The notes below the pieces were generated by a model, which saw nothing but the letters and a program-made list of their open reading frames with translations, was not told the origin of the DNA and made no database searches. From contig CBDCPB010000004.1 in the NCBI GenBank assembly GCA_965220125.1, positions 1,670,227 to 1,734,226 of the forward strand: a stretch of DNA of 64,000 nucleotides, in the 5' to 3' direction. Position numbers and translations under genes: made by a program. This DNA comes from Dehalococcoidia bacterium. Its GTDB lineage: Bacteria > Chloroflexota > Dehalococcoidia > UBA2979. Below are positions 4,244 to 42,988 of this stretch, piece after piece (position 1 is the first letter of the stretch; each line of letters begins with the position of its first letter).

Positions 4244-4357
4244 CTAGCCCTGGCGCTGGCGGTGCCGCGGAATCACGCAGATGACCCGCAGGCGGCCATG
4301 CCTGCGGATGATCTGGCAGCGGTCACAGCGCTTCTTCACCGACGCTCGTACCTTCAT
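4244..4357 (-). CDS. rpmJ: 50S ribosomal protein L36 (Cys/His zinc type)
   Basis: Hand-translated 37 aa: [37 protein letters not shown]. Below the size cut-off of the ORF track. Lies between rpsM and infA. Confidence 0.85.
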
Positions 4358-4386
4358 CGTTCGCTCCTCGGACGGCCGCCTCCGCG

Positions 4387-4653
4387 CTAGCGGAAGCGGT
4401 ACGTGATCCGTCCCCGGGTGAGGTCGTAGGGGCTCAACTCCACGAGCACGCGGTCTCCGAGCAGGATGCGAATGTAGTGCATCTTCATCCGCCCCGAGAC
4501 GTGCGCGAGCACGTGGTGCCCGTTTGCCAGCTCAACATCGAACTGGGCGTTGGGGAGCGCGTCCTTGACGACGCCCTCGACCTCGATGACCTCCTTCTTC
4601 TTGCGCTGTGGCGCCTGGCGTTGAGACCGCTGGTTCTGGCGTCCCTTCGCCAT
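4387..4653 (-). CDS. infA: Translation initiation factor IF-1 with a basic N-terminal extension of about 15 aa
   Basis: 88 aa; the core ...[51 protein letters not shown] matches IF-1. Start codon overlaps the map stop (ATGA). Confidence 0.88.
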
Positions 4654-5474
4654 CAGGCAGCGCCCCTGGCCGGGACCGCCGCTGCGTCATCGCGCGCTTC
4701 GTCCGGGCGGCCCATGCTGGTGAGGATCTCCGGCGCACCGTCGGTGACCGCGATGGTCTCCTCGAAATGGGCGCACAGGCTGCCATCACGCATGCGCACG
4801 GTCCAGCCGTCCGCTTCCTCTTCCGTGTGCTCGGCCCCGAGGCTGAACATCGGCTCCAGGGCCAGCACCATGCCCGGCTTCAGCATGTGGCCCACGCCGG
4901 GCCGGCCGTAGTTCGGGATGTGCGGCTCCTCGTGCATGCGCCTGCCGACGCCGTGGCCTCCGTAGTCGCGAATGATGCCGTAGCCCTCCTCGCGTCCGAC
5001 GGCCCCGATCGCGCTCGACAGATCGCCGATGCGCTTCCCGGCCAACGCCTGCTCGACCCCGGCGTGGACGGCGGCCTCGGTCCGTTCGAGCAGCCTCCGC
5101 ACCTTCGGCGAGGTGTCGCCGACGGCGGCCGTGAAGGCCGCATCGGAGACATAGCCGCGCCAGGTCACTCCCAGGTCGATGCTGACGATGTCGCCCTCCC
5201 GCAGCGCCCGGTCGCCCGGTATCCCGTGCACCAGTTGCGCGTTCACCGAGTAGCAGATCGCGCCGGGGTAGGGAGGCCGCCCGCCTGGACCGTAGCCGAC
5301 GAAGGTGGGCGTCGCGCCTCGACGCGCGATCTCCGCCTTCGCCAGCTCGTCCAGCTCACGGCCCGTTACGCCCGGAGCGATCGCGTCGAGGAGGAGCTTG
5401 CGCACCTCCGCGTTCAGCCTTCCGGCCTCGCGCATGATCGCGATCTCGTCCGGCGACTTTATGACGACGGACAT
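4653..5474 (-). CDS. map: Methionine aminopeptidase type I
   Basis: 273 aa; metal-binding region motifs ([21 protein letters not shown]-like). Confidence 0.88.
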
Positions 5475-5526
5475 CGATCTATGTTACGCCCTCTCCGCCG
5501 GGCCCGGTACCTGCCGGACCCCGTGC

Positions 5527-6102
5527 CTACGCAGCGGCTACCCGCTGCAACTCCACATCGAGCCGCTCGTACACCTCGTCCACGCTGCCGACGCCGTCGA
5601 CATCGCAGAGCGCACCGCGATCGCCGTAGAAGCAGGCGACGCCCTCGAGGCCCTCCGCCTGCTCCCGCAGGCGGCGCTGGGCGACCTCCGGCGCGTCGTC
5701 CGCTCGCCCCTCGATCTCCGCGCGCCTGGCGATGCGCTCCAGCAGCAGCTCCTCCGGCACACGGATGAAGGGCACGGTGTCGATGCCCTGCGACTGCGCC
5801 TCGAGGGCGGTCTGCAGCGCCTCGGCCTGACCGACGGTGCGGGGGAAGCCGTCGAGGATGAACCCCGCCGCGGCGTCCGGCTTGGCGATCCGTTCGAGCA
5901 GCATGCCGATCACCAGCTCGTCGGGGACCAGCTCGCCGCGTGACATGTAGTCGTTGGCCTGCGATCCGAGCGCCGTGCCCTGCGCGACGGCGTCGCGCAG
6001 CATGTCGCCGGTCGAGACGTGGAGCAGGCCGCGCCGCTCCGCGACGAGCTTCGCCTGCGTGCCTTTGCCGGCGCCGATCAGTCCCAGCAGCACCATCTTC
6101 AT
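5527..6102 (-). CDS. adk: Adenylate kinase
   Basis: 191 aa; MKMVLLGLIGAGKGTQA P-loop and the NMP-binding region. Confidence 0.9.
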   Translation of the reverse strand: MKMVLLGLIGAGKGTQAKLVAERRGLLHVSTGDMLRDAVAQGTALGSQANDYMSRGELVPDELVIGMLLERIAKPDAAAGFILDGFPRTVGQAEALQTALEAQSQGIDTVPFIRVPEELLLERIARRAEIEGRADDAPEVAQRRLREQAEGLEGVACFYGDRGALCDVDGVGSVDEVYERLDVELQRVAAA

Positions 6103-6142
6103 CGCAGCGCCACCCGCATCGTCTCCCTCGCGATCGCGAACC

Positions 6143-7480
6143 TCACGAGATGAACCCCTCGTAGTTGCGCATCAGCATCTGCGCCTCGAGTTGCCGCATC
6201 GTATCGATCACGACGCCGACCACGATCAGCAGGCCGGCGGCGCTGATCTGCAGCGCCTGCACGTCCGTGAGTGCCGTGGCGAAGAACGGGAGCACGGAGA
6301 TAAAGCCGAGGAAGAGCGCGCCTCCCCAGGTGATCCGCACCAGCACCCGCGTGATGTACTCCTGCGTCGGCCGTCCCGGCCGGATGCCGGGGATGAAGCC
6401 GCCCTGGCGTTGCAGGTTCTCGGCCAGGTTCTGCTGCTGGAACTGCACCATCGTGTAGAAGAACGTGAACATCACCACCAGCACGAAGACGAAGATCCAG
6501 TACGGGAGATTCGCCGGGGTCAGCGCGTTCTCGAAGAAGCGCGCGACGGTGCTGATCCAGCCGACGTCCGACATCTCCGCGAGGAACTGCGCCGCCACGG
6601 GCGGGAAGATCATGATCGAGAAGGCGAAGATCAGCGGGATCATCCCGGCGCTGTTGACGCGCAGCGGGATATGCGTCTGGCCCTGCTGGCGATACATCCG
6701 CCCGCCCCGGATCGTGGAGCGCGCGTACTGCACGGGGATGCGCCGCTGCGCCTCCTGGAAGAGCACGATCATCGCGATCACGGCGATCGTGATCACCGTC
6801 AGCAGGAAGATGCCGCCCGTCAGCGCGGCCGTCCCGGAGAGCGTGCTGCGGCCGACGATGCCGGGCAGTCCGGCGACGATGCCGCCGAAGATGATCAGCG
6901 AGATGCCGTTGCCGATGCCCTCTTCCGAGATCAGCTCGCCGAGCCAGACGAGGAACATCGTGCCGCCCACCATCGAGACGATCGTCGCGACAGTCGGGAG
7001 CGCGTTGCCTCCGCTCAGCCCAATGTCCTGGATCCCCCCGAACTGCTGGATCAGCAGCAGCTGCGCGTAGCCCTGGAAGAAGGCGAGCGGCACCGTCATC
7101 CAGTGCGTGTAGACCTGGATCTTCTGGCGCCCGGCTTCGCCCTCGCGGGAGAGCGCCTGCAGGCGCGGCACCAGCGGCACGGCGAGCTGCATCACGATCG
7201 AGGCGGTGATGTAGGGGTAGACGCCGAGCGCGGCGACGGAGAGGTTCTCCAGCGCGCCGCCGGAGAAGATATTGAGGAATCCGAGGATCGCGTTGTTGTC
7301 GAAGACGTCCTGCAGCCGGTCCGAGTTGACGCCCGGCACGGGCACGTGCGCGACGAAGCGGAAGACGAGCAGCATCGCGAGCGTGAAGAGAATCTTCTGC
7401 CGTACGTCGGGCTGCTTGAACGCATCGACGGCGGCCTGGAGCAGCCGCGGACGGGCCGACGGCGTCTCCTGCTGACTCAC
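6143..7480 (-). CDS. secY: Preprotein translocase subunit SecY
   Basis: 445 aa; multiple TM helices, SecY motifs, positioned between rplO and adk. Confidence 0.92.
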   Translation of the reverse strand: MSQQETPSARPRLLQAAVDAFKQPDVRQKILFTLAMLLVFRFVAHVPVPGVNSDRLQDVFDNNAILGFLNIFSGGALENLSVAALGVYPYITASIVMQLAVPLVPRLQALSREGEAGRQKIQVYTHWMTVPLAFFQGYAQLLLIQQFGGIQDIGLSGGNALPTVATIVSMVGGTMFLVWLGELISEEGIGNGISLIIFGGIVAGLPGIVGRSTLSGTAALTGGIFLLTVITIAVIAMIVLFQEAQRRIPVQYARSTIRGGRMYRQQGQTHIPLRVNSAGMIPLIFAFSIMIFPPVAAQFLAEMSDVGWISTVARFFENALTPANLPYWIFVFVLVVMFTFFYTMVQFQQQNLAENLQRQGGFIPGIRPGRPTQEYITRVLVRITWGGALFLGFISVLPFFATALTDVQALQISAAGLLIVVGVVIDTMRQLEAQMLMRNYEGFIS

Positions 7481-35486: not shown

Positions 35487-36206
35487 GTGCGCGTCAGGAT
35501 CCGGCTCTTCGCACAGCTCCGCGAGCTGATGGGCGGCGACTTCCTCGTCGAGGAGTTCGCCGAGAGCGCCGTCACGGTCGCCGATCTGCAGCGCCGCCTG
35601 GAGCAGTCGCGGCCCGCACTGCGGCCGCACCTCCCGACGCTCGCGCTGGCGATCAACGAGGAGTACTGCATCGACGCCTCCACGCAGATCGGCGAACGCG
35701 ACGAGGTCGCGCTGATCCAGCCGATCTCCGGGGGCGCCGATCAGGCGCCGCCGTTCCTCGTGACCCACGAGCCGCTGGACCGCGCTTCGCTGCGCGAGCT
35801 GGTGCGCACCGACGAGAGCGGCGCGGTGGTGCTGTTCGAGGGTGTGGTGCGCAACCACCACGAGGGCCGCGGCGTGGCGCGGCTGGAGTACGAGGCCTAC
35901 GCCTCGATGGCCGAGCGCCAGCTCGAGGCGGCAGCGCGCGAGGTGCTGGCGGAGTTCGAGGGCCGCGAGGTGCAGCGCATCGCGGCGCACCACCGCATCG
36001 GGATGCTGGAGATCGGCGAGGTCTCGCTGCTGGTCGCGGTCTCGGCCTCGCACCGGCGGGACGCCTTCGAGGCCGCCTTGCGCGCGGTCGACCGGATCAA
36101 GGAGACGGTCCCGGTCTGGAAGCGCGAGCACGGCCTCGACGGATCGGTGTGGCAGGAGGGGGTCAGGCCTCGGCCTGCCGGAGCGGAGCACCCCGCGGGG
36201 GCCTGA
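35487..36206 (+). CDS. Molybdopterin synthase MoaD-MoaE fusion protein
   Basis: N-terminal ThiS/MoaD fold ending ...IQPISGG, followed by MoaE motifs (VVLFEGVVRNHHEGRGV, RIKETVPVWKRE). Confidence 0.85.
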   Translation: MRVRIRLFAQLRELMGGDFLVEEFAESAVTVADLQRRLEQSRPALRPHLPTLALAINEEYCIDASTQIGERDEVALIQPISGGADQAPPFLVTHEPLDRASLRELVRTDESGAVVLFEGVVRNHHEGRGVARLEYEAYASMAERQLEAAAREVLAEFEGREVQRIAAHHRIGMLEIGEVSLLVAVSASHRRDAFEAALRAVDRIKETVPVWKREHGLDGSVWQEGVRPRPAGAEHPAGA

Positions 36207-36219
36207 CTGCGGAAGTTCT

Positions 36220-36555
36220 CTAGCCCAACTGGTTCAGGATCACACCGACGCCGATGCTGATCGCGGTCAGCACCAGGCCGAAGCCAGCCGCCATGCCCGC
36301 GCCGAGCTTGAGCAGCAGGCGCGGCTCAATCTGATCGACCTTGTGATCAAGCTGGTCGATCCGGTGGTCAAGTTGGTCGATCCGGTGGTCGAGCTTCCGC
36401 TCGAGGTCCGCGAGCGCAAGCGCCAGGTCTTCCTTCGTGACCAGATTCGAGGGCATCGCAGCCATGTGCGTCGCGAGGGCATCGGCCTGCTGCTCGTTGA
36501 ACCCTGCCGCGCGCAGGTCTTTGGAGATGCTGAGCGTGTCGGAAGCCATCGCCAT
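36220..36555 (-). CDS. DUF1640-like small protein, copy A: N-terminal FDTL-AG-QAEA-like motif, coiled coil with HRIDQLD-type 7-aa repeats, C-terminal TM helix
   Basis: MAMASDTLSISKDLRAAGFNEQQADALATHMAA...HRIDQLDHRIDQLDHKVDQIEPRLLLKLGAGMAAGFGLVLTAISIGVGVILNQLG. Start taken at the MAMAS ATG (36555), with a TATACT -10-like hexamer just upstream. The track ORF starts 9 codons earlier at a GTG. Confidence 0.7.
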   Translation of the reverse strand: MAMASDTLSISKDLRAAGFNEQQADALATHMAAMPSNLVTKEDLALALADLERKLDHRIDQLDHRIDQLDHKVDQIEPRLLLKLGAGMAAGFGLVLTAISIGVGVILNQLG

Positions 36556-36775
36556 GAGTATACGCCGCCGCCTCTGCCACACTTACGCGGGGGTTAGGGT
36601 AGCACAGTCCTGTCATACCATTACGCGCCGGTGCGAGCCTGATCAAGGAGACGGTCCCGGTCTGGAAGCGCGAGCAACGGCCTCGACGGGTCGGTCTGGC
36701 AGGAGGGCGTCGGTCTTCGCCCCACCGGAGCGGAGCGCCCCGCGGGCGCCCTGAGCGCCGGGAGCCCGGAGCCGG

Positions 36776-37153
36776 CTAGCCCAACTGGTTCAGGATCACG
36801 CCGACGCCGATGCTGATCGCGGTCAGCACCAGGCCGAAGCCCCCCACCATGCCGGCGCCCAGCTTGAGAAGCAGGCGCGGCTCAATCTGATCGACCTTGT
36901 GATCGAGCTGATCAACCTTGTGATCGAGCTGATCAACCTTGTGGTCCAGCTGATCAATTCTGTGGTCCAGCTGATCAATTCTGTGGCCAACCTTGAGCTC
37001 GAGTTCTGCGAGCCCAAGTGCCAGGTCTTCCCGTGAGGCCAGGTTTGCCGGCATGGCGGCCATGTGCGTGGCGAGCGCGTCCGCCTGCTGCTCGTTGAAG
37101 CCTGCCGCGCGCAGGTCTTTGGAGATGCTGAGCGTGTCGGAAGCCATCGCCAT
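36776..37153 (-). CDS. DUF1640-like small protein, copy B, with five 7-aa (21-nt) coiled-coil repeats
   Basis: Near-identical N-terminus to copy A; HRIDQLD x2 plus HKVDQLD x3; C-terminal TM helix. Confidence 0.7.
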   Translation of the reverse strand: MAMASDTLSISKDLRAAGFNEQQADALATHMAAMPANLASREDLALGLAELELKVGHRIDQLDHRIDQLDHKVDQLDHKVDQLDHKVDQIEPRLLLKLGAGMVGGFGLVLTAISIGVGVILNQLG

Positions 37154-37364
37154 GAGTATACGCCGCCGCCTCTGCCACACTTACGCGGGGGTTAGGGTAG
37201 CACAGTCCTGTCATACCATTACGCGCCGGTGCGAGCCTGATCAAGGAGACGGTCCCGGTCTGGAAGCGCGAGCAACGGCCTCGACGGGTCGGTCTGGCAG
37301 GAGGGCGTCGGTCTTCGCCCCACCGGAGCGGGGCGCCCCGCGGGCGCCCTGAGCGCCGAGCCCG

Positions 37365-37646
37365 TTAGCCGAGCTGGTGGAGGAGCACCGCTGTGGCTGT
37401 GCCCATCCCGGCAAGGATCAGTCCGACGGCAACCGCCAGGCCCGCACCAAGCCTCAGCAGCAGGCGCGACTCAACCTGATCGATCTTGTGGTTCAGTCGA
37501 GATACCTCCAGTGCGAGGTCTTCCTTCGTGACGAGATTCGTGGGCATCGCGGCCATGTGCGTGGCGAGCGCGTCGGCCTGCTGCTCGTTGAAGCCTGCCG
37601 CGCGCAGGTCTTTGGAGATGCTGAGCGTGTCCGAAGCCATCGCCAT
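37365..37646 (-). CDS. DUF1640-like small protein, copy C, with no internal 7-aa repeats and a divergent TM helix
   Basis: MAMASDTLSISKDLRAAGFNEQQADALATHMAAMPTNLVTKEDLALEVSRLNHKIDQVESRLLLRLGAGLAVAVGLILAGMGTATAVLLHQLG. Only 6 nt separate it from copy D. Confidence 0.65.
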   Translation of the reverse strand: MAMASDTLSISKDLRAAGFNEQQADALATHMAAMPTNLVTKEDLALEVSRLNHKIDQVESRLLLRLGAGLAVAVGLILAGMGTATAVLLHQLG

Positions 37647-37652
37647 AGAGCG

Positions 37653-37901
37653 TCAGCCCAGTTGGTTCAGAAGGATTGCCGTGACAATGCCCATCCCGGC
37701 GAAGAGTAGACCCACGGCAACCGCGAGACCTGCGCCCATCCTCAACTCAAGCCGCGATACCTCCAGTGCCAGGTCTTCTTTCGTCACGAGGTTCGCGGGC
37801 ACGGCAGCCATGTGCGTCGCGAGCGCATCGGCCTGCTGCTCGTTGAAGCCTGCCGCCCGCAGGTCTTTGGAGATGCTGAGCGTGTCCGAAGCCATCGCCA
37901 T
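37653..37901 (-). CDS. DUF1640-like small protein, copy D, shortest form
   Basis: MAMASDTLSISKDLRAAGFNEQQADALATHMAAVPANLVTKEDLALEVSRLELRMGAGLAVAVGLLFAGMGIVTAILLNQLG. Confidence 0.65.
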   Translation of the reverse strand: MAMASDTLSISKDLRAAGFNEQQADALATHMAAVPANLVTKEDLALEVSRLELRMGAGLAVAVGLLFAGMGIVTAILLNQLG

Positions 37902-37966
37902 GAGTATAGGCCGCCGCCGCTGCCACGCGTCCGAGGCGCATACCATACCACAGTCATGTCATACGA

Positions 37967-39328
37967 CTACGCGCCGGTGCGGTAGTCCGGGGCGCGCAGC
38001 TCGTAGGCGGTGGCGACCTGGAGGTCGCTGAGCCGCGAGGCGATGCGCGGCTCCAGATCCGTGAGCGCGAGGTCGCTCGTGATCACCGTCGGGCGGCGGC
38101 CGAGATGGCGATAGTTGAGCAGCTGGTAGAGCTTCTCCTGCGCCCAGCCGCCCGACTTCTCCACCCCGAGGTCGTCGAGGACCAGCAGGCCGGCGTCGCG
38201 CAGGCGGCGGAACAGCGGATCGAAGCGCTCGGCCGAGTCCGGCGAGAACGACGCGCGCAGCTCGTCGAGCAGGTCCGGGGCGGTGGCGAAGGCGACGCGG
38301 TCGCCCTGATCGAGGCGGTAGCCGGCGATGGCGGCGGCGAGGTGGGTCTTGCCGCTGCCGTTCTTGCCAAGCAGCACCAGCCAGCCTGCGGGGCGCTCCG
38401 CCCAGCCGCGCGCGAGGCGGAACGCGCCCTCGAGGTTGCGGCGCTGCTCGCCCCGCAGGCCGTGCCCGCCGGGCCGGAAGCGCTCGAACGTCAGCTCGGC
38501 GAGCCGCTCGCGCGACATCCCGCCGACCTCGGAGTAGCGGGGCGCCGACGTCTCCTCGAGCGTGAAGTGCTGTGCGAGGGCGGGGTCCGCGAGCCGCGCG
38601 CCGAGACGCTCGTCGATCTGCTCGGGCGGCCGCACGCAGGTGAAGACCGTCGGGAGCGCGGCATGGAAGCGGTGCGAGACGAGCTGCGCGAACTTCTCGC
38701 GCGCCCACGGCGTCTCGGAGTAGCTGTCGAGGTCGTCGAGCACGGCCAGCGGCGCCTCGCGGAACTGGTCGCTGAGGCGATCGTAGGAGACTTCGGCGTC
38801 GTCCCCGTAGGAGGCGCGCAGGCGGTCGAGGAAGTCGGCGACGGAGAGGAAGAGCGCGGGGCGGCCGAGCTCGATCGCGCGGTTGGCGATGGCGGCTGCG
38901 AGGTGCGTCTTGCCGCAGCCGGGCACGCCGCTGAAGACCAGCCAGCCCTGGGGATCCTCGGCGAAGCGGCGCGCGGCCTCGACAGCGAGGGTGTAGCGCT
39001 GCTGCGCGAGGGGGTCGGAGGAGCGGCCATGCGGGAGCAGCGTCCCGAAGGTGAAGCGGGAGAGCGTGCCGAGGCGCGAGTAGCGGAGCAGGCGCTCGCG
39101 CCGCTCGCCCTCGTCCTCGCGGTCGGCGCAGCTGCACGGCACGGCGCGCCCGAACTCGGGGCTGGTGAGATCCGCGGTGACCCGCACGAAGCGCGCGCCC
39201 CTGCAGAGCGGGCACGGCGGGTCGCGGTCCACGGCTGCGGACTGGGGATCAGCTGCGGCGGATAACGCGTTCGTACGGTCCGTGATCGCGAGGCTCCGCT
39301 CGCGCATGATCCGCGCCAGGCTTCGCAT
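37967..39328 (-). CDS. Putative helicase loader with an N-terminal Cys4 zinc ribbon and two tandem DnaC/DnaI/IstB-like AAA+ modules
   Basis: ATG at 39328 is preceded by AGGAAGGGGGG. Zinc ribbon CPLCRG...CSC. Two Walker A motifs, GVPGCGKTHLAAAIA and GKNGSGKTHLAAAIA, each followed by a DnaC-like region ending VLDDLD/VLDDLG. Confidence 0.7.
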   Translation of the reverse strand: MRSLARIMRERSLAITDRTNALSAAADPQSAAVDRDPPCPLCRGARFVRVTADLTSPEFGRAVPCSCADREDEGERRERLLRYSRLGTLSRFTFGTLLPHGRSSDPLAQQRYTLAVEAARRFAEDPQGWLVFSGVPGCGKTHLAAAIANRAIELGRPALFLSVADFLDRLRASYGDDAEVSYDRLSDQFREAPLAVLDDLDSYSETPWAREKFAQLVSHRFHAALPTVFTCVRPPEQIDERLGARLADPALAQHFTLEETSAPRYSEVGGMSRERLAELTFERFRPGGHGLRGEQRRNLEGAFRLARGWAERPAGWLVLLGKNGSGKTHLAAAIAGYRLDQGDRVAFATAPDLLDELRASFSPDSAERFDPLFRRLRDAGLLVLDDLGVEKSGGWAQEKLYQLLNYRHLGRRPTVITSDLALTDLEPRIASRLSDLQVATAYELRAPDYRTGA

Positions 39329-42108: not shown

Positions 42109-42451
42109 CGCCGAAACCCTCTCGCCGTGCCGGAGCCGGGACGCCGTTGACTATGGCGACCGCGCGTGCTGCCGGCTTGCTGGTTGTCCAAGGCCCTTTC
42201 AGTTGCTTGCGAACACTCGGACACAGCGCTGTTGACGCTGCACTCTGCCCACAGGCTATCCACGGCCACGGACCACGCGCAATGCCGGAGGCGTGCGCCA
42301 ACCCCCAATCGTCACGGCGTACGCAGTCATCGTATAAGAACGCGTGTTCCGTTGTCAAACGGATGTTCTCAGGCTGTACCATGATTCCCCTGGATCCGGC
42401 GAGCTTCCCGCCCACCCGTGGCGATATGATGCTGTGCGAGTGGAGGGCATC

Positions 42452-42988
42452 GTGACGGACGCAGTGGTCTTCAACCGGCAGAGGTTCCGCGAGGCGCTGC
42501 TCTACGTAGCGCGCGAGTCCGAGGACGACATCCGGTTCGGCCTGACGAAGCTCAACAAGATCCTCTATTTCAGTGACTTCAAGGCCTTCGCAATCCTCGG
42601 GTGCGCGATCACCGGCGCGACGTACCGGAGGCTCGACTACGGCCCCGTCCCCAGCGTGCTGCTGGACGTCCTGTGCGAGATGGAGGCCGAAGGCGAGATC
42701 CAGAGGATCGAGCGGCGCGACCTCAACCGGCTGCAGAAGCGCATCGTCCCGCTGCGATCGCCTGATCTCTCCGTGTTCTCCGACCGCGAACTGGAGATCC
42801 TCGATCGCGTGATCATGGAGTTGGGCGTGCTCGACGCCTCCCAGTCGCGCTTGCTATCTCATCTCGATGTCGGGTGGAGGATCGCCCACTACGAAGAGGT
42901 CATCCCCTACCACTCCGCCTACATCTCCGACCGCCGCCCCACCCAGCGGGAACTCGCCGAGCGCGGGCTGACGCCCGCACCGTGGTGA
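42452..42988 (+). CDS. Panacea-domain (DUF4065) putative antitoxin, second copy
   Basis: GTG at 42452 preceded by GGAGGG. VFNRQRFREALLYVARESEDDIRFGLTKLNKILYFSDFKAFAILGCAITGATYRRLDYGPVP. Lower GC than the flanks. Confidence 0.65.
   Translation: MTDAVVFNRQRFREALLYVARESEDDIRFGLTKLNKILYFSDFKAFAILGCAITGATYRRLDYGPVPSVLLDVLCEMEAEGEIQRIERRDLNRLQKRIVPLRSPDLSVFSDRELEILDRVIMELGVLDASQSRLLSHLDVGWRIAHYEEVIPYHSAYISDRRPTQRELAERGLTPAPW

Follow-up and report, generated by a model that had tools for sequence, protein, structure and literature searches.

The closest described relatives of the genes treated here are the DUF1640/CCDC90-like proteins (PF07798), a group that includes human MCUR1 and CCDC90B, yeast Put6 and Put7, and prokaryotic homologues. 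In these proteins a head with the motif DTL..L..AGF..QA is followed by a beta-layer neck (motif ATKxD), a coiled-coil stalk, and a C-terminal transmembrane (TM) helix; the structure of the family is reportedly described by Adlakha et al. in 2019 (Structure 27:464). Prokaryotic members are widespread (1510 cluster representatives), structurally understood, and without a known function; literature mentions of DUF1640 state none for the bacterial proteins. Here, we analyze a 64,000-nucleotide (nt) stretch of DNA from a Dehalococcoidia bacterium (assembly GCA_965220125.1, contig CBDCPB010000004.1, positions 1,670,227–1,734,226), hereafter the window, in which four paralogues, genes A to D, are flanked by a double dnaC-like gene on one side and a convergent moaD-moaE fusion on the other. 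The same head, neck, stalk, and anchor recur in their products. Relative to the DUF1640 model (175 positions), however, A–D are shorter (82–125 amino acids, aa), score below threshold, and lack a targeting sequence; relative to the family at large, stalks in the array go down to ~6 residues, and the genes stand in tandem, in one to five copies at one fixed locus.

Other stalked proteins offer further points of comparison. Lpp (Braun lipoprotein) is a periplasmic spacer, and trimeric autotransporter adhesins and streptococcal M proteins possess length-variable stalks; these systems share with A–D a stalk made of in-frame tandem repeats whose number varies by strain, and the use of this stalk as a spacer to fix a distance from the membrane. 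Unlike them, A–D have neither a signal peptide nor a lipobox nor a beta-barrel anchor; their head probably lies in the cytoplasm, it is the tip that is conserved, and no sequence homology extends past coiled-coil bias. XhlA (PF10779), a small phage-associated protein, is of similar size and likewise places a coiled coil ahead of a C-terminal TM helix, but B alone matches it, through its heptad repeats only, and there is no phage context here. Thermosinus Tcar0761 (PDB 5APZ; PMC4786415) has the same beta-layer motif leading into a heptad coiled coil, whereas in A–D a single beta-layer serves as the neck, in place of a repeated nonad fiber, and a head and a TM anchor are added.

We consider it likely that A–D are small tail-anchored inner-membrane DUF1640 proteins, in which a conserved head is carried on a spacer stalk, and that their locus has been reshaped by recombination. 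New here are the fixed genomic position, the range of one to five copies, the recurrent amplification, the gene conversion, the headless variants, and the quantized stalks. The clade amounts to a natural experiment, with an invariant head, stalks of ~6 to 108 residues, headless paralogues, and one to five copies per locus; these features point to a functional role for the head and to a stalk that serves as an adjustable spacer.

Family assignment and protein architecture

All four genes lie on the minus strand (A, 36220–36555, 111 aa; B, 36776–37153, 125 aa; C, 37365–37646, 93 aa; D, 37653–37901, 82 aa), and all open with MAMASDTLSISKDLRAAGFNEQQADALATHMAA. An earlier note, made by a model from the DNA alone, had described them as four tandem DUF1640-like paralogues with a coiled coil and a TM anchor, a description with which both the open reading frames (ORFs) and the profile evidence agree. 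The match to PF07798 that the note had anticipated was found as the best or only Pfam match for A, C, and D, covering the head (first ~30 residues), and as the fifth by E-value for B, behind generic coiled-coil families; the scores were nevertheless sub-threshold, at 15.7–17.4 bits (E 0.004–0.014) against a gathering cut-off of 33.5. The alternative expectation of an XhlA-like match was borne out in none but B, where it is confined to the repeats (17.1 bits against a cut-off of 34.7, E 0.0063). NCBIfam returned weak coiled-coil matches for A and B, far under every cut-off, and none for C and D.

Membership in DUF1640 is based on profile-profile evidence. A profile search of the PDB matched the human CCDC90B head construct 6h9m (E 1.3e-3) as well as the beta-layer constructs 5apz, 7o92, and 7o97; residues 5–29, SDTLSISKDLRAAGFNEQQADALA, align to the 6h9m head with the motif (F/S)DTL..L..AGF..QA(E/D). 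Hartmann et al. (PMC4786415) described a beta-layer motif, [aliphatic]-A-T-K-[polar]-[DE], at the stalk start of DUF1640 proteins, and neck residues 37–42 fit it, reading LASRED in B and LVTKED in the other three; among 47 sequences, T40 and D43 vary little or not at all. An exhaustive profile search of 1.84 billion representatives yielded 1510 clusters at E <= 1e-3. The 33 members that were fetched are mostly of 70–200 aa, with the pattern FDTLK..AGF..QAEA..LATKxDL, tandem repeats, and a TM helix; in all ten of those tested PF07798 was significant, being the top match in nine and above the cut-off in four. Three longer members of the clade have a precomputed PF07798 match. Finally, hhalign of the clade alignment (A1) against a PF07798-positive prokaryotic alignment (A4) gave 99.8% probability (E 1.1e-29), and its 104 aligned columns extend from the head to the TM helix. 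On the PDB, neck, profile, and hhalign evidence, we regard the predicted placement of A–D in the prokaryotic DUF1640 family as solid. The subfamily is a lineage-specific, unusually short branch of a structurally characterized family, and its locus is exceptionally dynamic.

From N to C terminus, the predicted layout comprises a two-helix head of ~33 residues, a beta-layer neck (L-V/A-T/S-K/R-E-D), a coiled-coil stalk, and one TM helix with a 4-residue tail; in A, the head spans residues 3–33. An AlphaFold2 (AF2) monomer model of the gene B product places helices at 2–16 and 21–32, a loop at 33–40, and a single helix at 41–124. Within the stalk the heptad register has I/V at position a, L at d, D at e, and K/R at g. 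Weak similarities to MerR/CueR and NmlR were dropped as a likely bias from a helix followed by a long helix.

The C-terminal 28 residues are uncharged, with a mean hydropathy of 2.1–2.5, and R/K stands directly before them; no signal peptide was found in A–D. Since the C-terminal hydrophobic run is preceded by R/K and nothing follows it, the head would face the cytoplasm and the protein would be tail-anchored in the inner membrane. This orientation agrees with the topology of MCUR1 and Put6/Put7, which face the mitochondrial matrix, the equivalent of the cytoplasm (PMC6801532, PMC7519068). In all solved cases a beta-layer implies a trimer (PMC4786415), and by analogy the proteins are probably homo-oligomers, trimers as in CCDC90B.

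The stalks of the window proteins differ in their number of 21-nt units, which encode HRIDQLD/HKVDQLD: three in A (36325–36387, 35-residue stalk) and five in B (36881–36985, 49-residue stalk), the 14-aa length gap corresponding to two units. The count of three previously given for A thus holds, and the six given for B becomes five; likewise, of C and D, both said to be without repeats, D has none (~6 stalk residues) and C has one, HKIDQVE (37470–37490, 17-residue stalk). The anchors are of two types, with type 1 (LGAGMAAGFGLVLTAISIGVGVIL) in A and B and type 2 (LGAGLAVAVGLILAGMGTATAVLL) in C and D. Across 104 relatives, stalk length was measured from the neck to the LLLKLG motif, and all but four fall on the series 10 + 7n (10, 17, 24, 31, 38, 45, 52), 21 + 7n (21, 28, 35, 42, 49), and 57 + 11n (57, 68, 79); the exceptions measure 39 (one protein), 62 (one), and 6 (two). 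The longest stalks, of 75 residues (two proteins) and 108 (one), were assigned to the first two series, and the 33-residue gap between them equals three 11-residue steps. Seven and eleven residues are natural coiled-coil periods, and the underlying stalk DNA is a 21-nt or 33-nt tandem repeat. Because lengths step by 7 or 11 only, the stalk can be viewed as a spacer that keeps head, neck, and TM helix in register. In the window genome the same head thus sits on stalks of ~6, 17, 35, and 49 residues, which would hold it ~1 to 7 nm from the membrane by our own estimate (0.15 nm per residue).

The surface of the window stalks has a feature of its own. In the repeats at 36325–36387 and 36881–36985, the exposed heptad position f is His throughout and Asp occupies b and e, forming HxxD rows, while in other lineages position f is S, E, or Q. 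Such rows raise the possibility of metal or pH sensitivity.

The head is the part most tightly held. Across the head and neck of A–D, the proportion of synonymous differences (pS) is 0.27–0.40 and that of nonsynonymous differences (pN) is 0.009–0.043, and this low pN/pS shows that selection has maintained all four copies. Among 27 copies, third codon positions vary and residues do not, which places the constraint on the protein and not on the DNA. The head is nearly invariant across species and paralogues and under strong purifying selection, and in that sense is a selected module; presumably, it is a partner-binding one.

Birth and reshaping of the array

Unit boundaries were drawn from a repeat finder and a three-way alignment: unit 1 (36092–36637) carries A, unit 2 (36638–37235) carries B, and unit 3 (37236 to ~37985) carries C and D. 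In the direction of the genes, each of the first two units consists of ~15 nt copied from the 3' end of the dnaC-like gene, ~65 nt that resemble a promoter region, then the gene, a short spacer and, from the moaE 3' end, ~113 nt; unit 3 is arranged likewise, except that it starts with the authentic dnaC-like 3' end and holds two genes. The template of the moaE pieces is the final ~113 nt of moaD-moaE (36092–36203), repeated at 36638–36750 and 37236–37348. Unit 1 holds the real gene end; units 2 and 3 each hold a frameshifted pseudo-copy on the plus strand (36638–36753, with a 1-nt indel and the stop codon retained, and 37236–37351, also with a 1-nt indel). The pseudo-copies are 88% identical to the real moaE end and 97.7% identical to each other, and the indel leads tblastn to split each over two frames. 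These two copies uphold the proposal of the earlier note that a segmental duplication had copied the moaE 3' end with each unit; its composition of moaE 3' end, gene, and promoter also stands, with the ~15 nt of dnaC-like 3' end to be added.

The upstream blocks of A (36556–36637) and B (37154–37235), both on the minus strand, measure 82 nt each rather than the ~95 bp claimed before, are 100% identical, and terminate in TATACT-C-ATG. Their TATACT hexamers lie at 36557–36562 and 37155–37160, with a TGTGCTAnnnT element further upstream at 36596–36606 in A and at 37194–37204 (TGTGCTACCCT) in B. Preceding D is the original intergenic region from the dnaC-like stop (37902–37966, minus strand), with TATACT at 37903–37908 and TGTGGTATGGT at 37942–37952. 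In the A and B blocks, the ~15 nt farthest from the gene duplicate the end of the dnaC-like gene, stop codon included (GCACCGGCGCGTAG, which becomes ...GTAA), and at the unit junction this piece therefore abuts the moaE 3' end (...CCTTGATCAGG followed directly by CTCGCACCGGCGCGTAA). The parent sequences at this junction have an imperfect CCGG..ACCGC match in common. We infer that the array may have originated by an illegitimate, microhomology-guided tandem duplication, an old event that would have fused the ends of the dnaC-like and moaE genes.

Word-indexed searches recovered ~136 close relatives, all from Dehalococcoidia or 'Chloroflexi' metagenome-assembled genomes, and a scan of one genome per species gave 11 loci. 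The gene order rplI, dnaB, dnaD-like, double dnaC-like, small gene(s), convergent moaD-moaE, ComF-like phosphoribosyltransferase, pfkB, and glyA is the same throughout the 11 species representatives and holds as far as L022 and L023, the most distant members of the clade (relatives are designated here by L numbers). The number of small genes is not so constant. One copy is present in L002, L003, L006–L009, and L022; two in L018, in L010 (one frameshifted), and in L001, L004, L005, and L011, where the second is a 'headless' paralogue; three in L021; four in the window as assembled; and five in L012/L013, in L019/L020 (with a three-gene transposon within the array), and in L023.

The window can be compared with L013, 97% identical to it over the locus, where an additional unit of 502 base pairs, gene X (118 aa), separates D from C; copy number, predicted to differ between close relatives, is four in one and five in the other. 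The alignment blocks of the two genomes overlap on the first 177 nt of gene C, a stretch that matches the beginning of gene X in L013 and that of its gene C as well. Such an overlap is what unequal homologous recombination between the conserved 5' ends of two copies leaves behind and, equally, what an assembly collapse of a fifth copy would leave. As to the array itself, moaE-fragment arrays also occur in assemblies made independently from five other samples, so that the array as such is no assembly artefact. A look-up with the B protein brought no match to the window's exact four-copy state in a second assembly, the window's own contig not being among the results.

Repeat number, too, varies both within the genome and between close relatives, as had been claimed, the B-type gene encoding 111, 118, or 125 aa depending on the strain. 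For gene conversion, another process named in the earlier note, there are two signs: A and B have 100% identical upstream blocks beside 5' coding sequence (codons 1–46) that has diverged to a pS of 0.38, and the L019 copy beside moaE is a hybrid in which a B-type neck and linker are joined to an A-type TM helix. After the founding duplication, unequal homologous recombination and gene conversion at the conserved 5' coding ends and upstream blocks would add, remove, and homogenize copies, while stalk units may be gained or lost via slippage or unequal recombination between the DNA repeats. The description of the amplification as recent does not survive: head pS is 0.27–0.40, and the moaE-fragment junctions are common to L010, L021, L013, and L019, one of which is a separate species representative. 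The locus offers a clean example of how an array may be born by illegitimate recombination of two gene ends and then be shaped by unequal crossing-over and gene conversion.

Amplification has happened more than once. In L023, the five-copy array (4298–6429; 98, 98, 105, 131, and 142 aa) has nearly identical 99-nt spacers and no moaE fragment, which points to independent amplification. Its two longest copies are built of 11-residue hendecad repeats (ERLDxKLTSEI), not heptads.

Decay and invasion of the array were also seen. The upstream copy of L010 (5417–5836) is pseudogenized: a 71-aa ORF remains, the heptad and TM coding sequence is out of frame, and a moaE pseudo-fragment follows. The transposon of L019 (8846–12019) and L020 (3043–6216) lies between the 93-aa and 125-aa copies and encodes a helix-turn-helix plus rve integrase, an rve plus Mu-transposase C-terminal protein, and an IstB-like ATPase.

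The headless paralogue (L001, 6294–6551; L004, ~6261–6506; L005, ~6261–6523) starts ~11 nt past the headed gene and reads MASDTPHLPNDAPTVLVTEGSLTP..RFERACD repeats..TM type 1, keeping only MASDT, a degenerate neck, and the TM helix. Its 21-nt RFERACD repeat is present as two exact units in L001 and L005 and as one in L004. It is kept in three species representatives, and P0147 is a close variant. In the more distant lineage of L011, a 55-aa ORF (~6355–6525) after the headed gene opens at the neck motif (MTKRDLSAATQRIDESVDRVVRKLLVGLGAIMVVGFSLTLLALAIGTWIIIAQVK) and likewise supplies a stalk and TM helix without a head. Such a paralogue might be a regulatory or dominant-negative partner of the headed proteins.

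Proposed role of the head and stalk and competing explanations

By analogy with MCUR1, CCDC90B, Put6, and Put7, the proteins may act as membrane scaffolds for a soluble or membrane partner, and the most likely role of A–D is that of a cytoplasm-facing membrane scaffold whose conserved head would bind the partner. Several observations weigh against the picture of a tail-anchored, probably trimeric DUF1640 scaffold. The direct PF07798 scores are about half of the gathering threshold, and the AF2 model has a mean pLDDT (predicted local distance difference test score) of 71, with the head at low confidence (pLDDT 54–59); a Foldseek search of this monomer against the PDB returned nothing below E = 1. 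Under simple GCN4-based rules, I/V at position a with L at d would favor dimers over trimers. Remote DUF1640 proteins outside the clade sit in unrelated neighborhoods, and for this reason we give the synteny with replication genes little functional weight. The TGnTAnnnT element upstream of the genes could be the real promoter, which would yield a leadered mRNA. Finally, the picture gives no reason for several stalk lengths to coexist, and some genomes manage with one copy.

The single copy in many relatives (L002, L003, L006–L009, L022) is also what would be expected if the array were a neutral by-product of a recombination-prone locus, in which one copy suffices, extras are tolerated on the way to loss, and no length series is selected. 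The frameshifted copy of L010, the transposon inside the L019 and L020 arrays, and the co-residence of equal stalks (42 and 42 residues in L013, 24 and 24 in L023) fit this explanation as well. We nevertheless judge it unlikely: the four window copies are intact, and their head pN/pS of ~0.03–0.13 at a pS of 0.27–0.40 indicates that they have long been under selection; moreover, amplification has occurred at least twice with different junctions, and stalk changes are strictly in frame and preserve coiled-coil periodicity.

At the opposite pole, the array could be a selected 'length series', presenting the same head at several set distances (~1 to 7 nm) from the inner membrane face, with the distances tuned by 21- and 33-nt repeats and by tandem copies. 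If so, the recurrent independent amplifications would reflect selection. We hold this to be a doubtful proposition. In an extension of this reading, the head would act as a membrane tether in connection with the neighboring helicase-loading genes, the DnaD-like and the DnaC-like one.

Coiled-coil stalks of variable length are characteristic of surface proteins, trimeric autotransporters and M proteins among them. This likeness, and the speed with which stalks and copy number change between strains, would suit surface-exposed proteins that vary in stalk length and copy number under phage or host pressure, but we find such exposure highly improbable for A–D. No signal peptide is present, the sole hydrophobic segment is C-terminal, preceded by R/K and followed by no more than an uncharged tail of 4 residues, and the head, the would-be exposed tip, is the most conserved part instead of the most variable. 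Nor is there a frame-shifting or promoter repeat: Tandem Repeats Finder reported no simple-sequence tract, giving 21-nt in-frame units, 12-nt alternative parsings of them, and two 11-nt repeats outside (1.9 copies each). Length variants in the family are multiples of 7 or 11 residues. The phase-variable envelope protein envisaged in the earlier note is not supported, on the same grounds, the repeat units all being in frame, without a promoter-spacing tract and without a signal peptide. The eukaryotic relatives, furthermore, face the matrix (PMC6801532, PMC7519068).

That the genes are what remains of a mobile element or prophage (an XhlA/holin-like lysis or defense module) amplified at an insertion hotspot is hardly credible, since they occupy a fixed chromosomal site between housekeeping genes in every genome examined and the XhlA match of B (E 0.006) is confined to the repeats and far below threshold, even though A–D resemble phrog_17872, a phage family of unknown function (E 4e-9 to 4e-6), and DUF1640 proteins have been found in prophage regions of other bacteria (PMC5291501). 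A tblastn search against 50,697 phage records gave no match, a scan of IMG/VR found no relatives, and PADLOC-DB returned chance-level matches only (E >= 0.003), to coiled-coil or TM segments. No evidence pointing to phase variation, surface exposure, phage origin, or defense thus emerged, with phrog_17872 as the sole exception on the phage side.

Expression signals and neighboring genes

Turning to expression of the tail-anchored proteins, the TATACT hexamer ends 1 nt 5' of the first ATG in A, B, and D. This first ATG is replaced by GTG in L001, L011, L022, and L023, and the second ATG is invariant, with a TA(T/G)ACT box ending 7 nt upstream of it; the -10-like box is degenerate in L011 and L022. 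Neighboring genes have GGAGG-like motifs 6–9 nt upstream of their starts, and the small genes have none. A leaderless mRNA was defined by a transcription start site at the A of the start codon, a -10 box ~6–8 nt upstream, and the lack of a Shine–Dalgarno sequence. Judged from these motifs, translation probably starts at the second ATG (36549 in gene A, 37147 in B, and 37895 in D), and a leaderless mRNA starting there is plausible. The suggestion of a leaderless start thus keeps its force for the second, invariant ATG only, the geometry at the first ATG being too close (1 nt).

The TGTGCTAnnnT element (36596–36606, 37194–37204, and 37942–37952, minus strand) lies ~40 nt 5' of the first ATG and resembles an extended -10 box. 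In a recognizable TGTGCTAnnnT/TGnTAnnnT form it is found, across all lineages up to the most distant, ahead of each copy that has an upstream region of its own. It may serve as a promoter, as an operator, or in some other way. A, B, and D would each have their own promoter region. Gene C has no upstream block of its own and neither TATACT nor TGTGCTAnnnT, and it starts 6 nt past the stop of D; for these reasons it is probably co-transcribed with D and translationally coupled to it.

A consensus scan of 35900–38200 for sigma-70 promoters and intrinsic terminators found none, and RNAalifold detected no conserved structure and no covariation across 22 upstream regions. The 70–80 nt past the stops of A, B, and C contain GC-rich hairpins that are not stabler than shuffled sequences (z = +0.4, +0.6, and -0.5); for that reason, no claim is made for the moaE fragment as a supplier of terminators. 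An Rfam scan of the whole window gave no match at gathering thresholds.

On one side, the array is bounded by the intact moaD-moaE fusion (35487–36206, plus strand, 239 aa), orthologues of which (96–97% identical) carry PF02597 (ThiS) and PF02391 (MoaE). On the other side is the dnaC/IstB-like gene (37967–39307, minus strand, 446 aa), with two tandem IstB/DnaA-type AAA+ modules; this double-module form is kept in all relatives. Its called start overlaps the 3' end of the dnaD-like gene (PF07261) by ~59 nt in L012/L013 and L019. Further along, by correspondence with called genes of L012/L013, a protein with a SocA_Panacea domain (PF13274) is encoded at ~42344–42988 of the window on the plus strand. 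It adjoins a 113-aa ORF just beyond rplI, with which it may form a toxin-antitoxin pair, and its length is strain-dependent (214 versus 178 aa).

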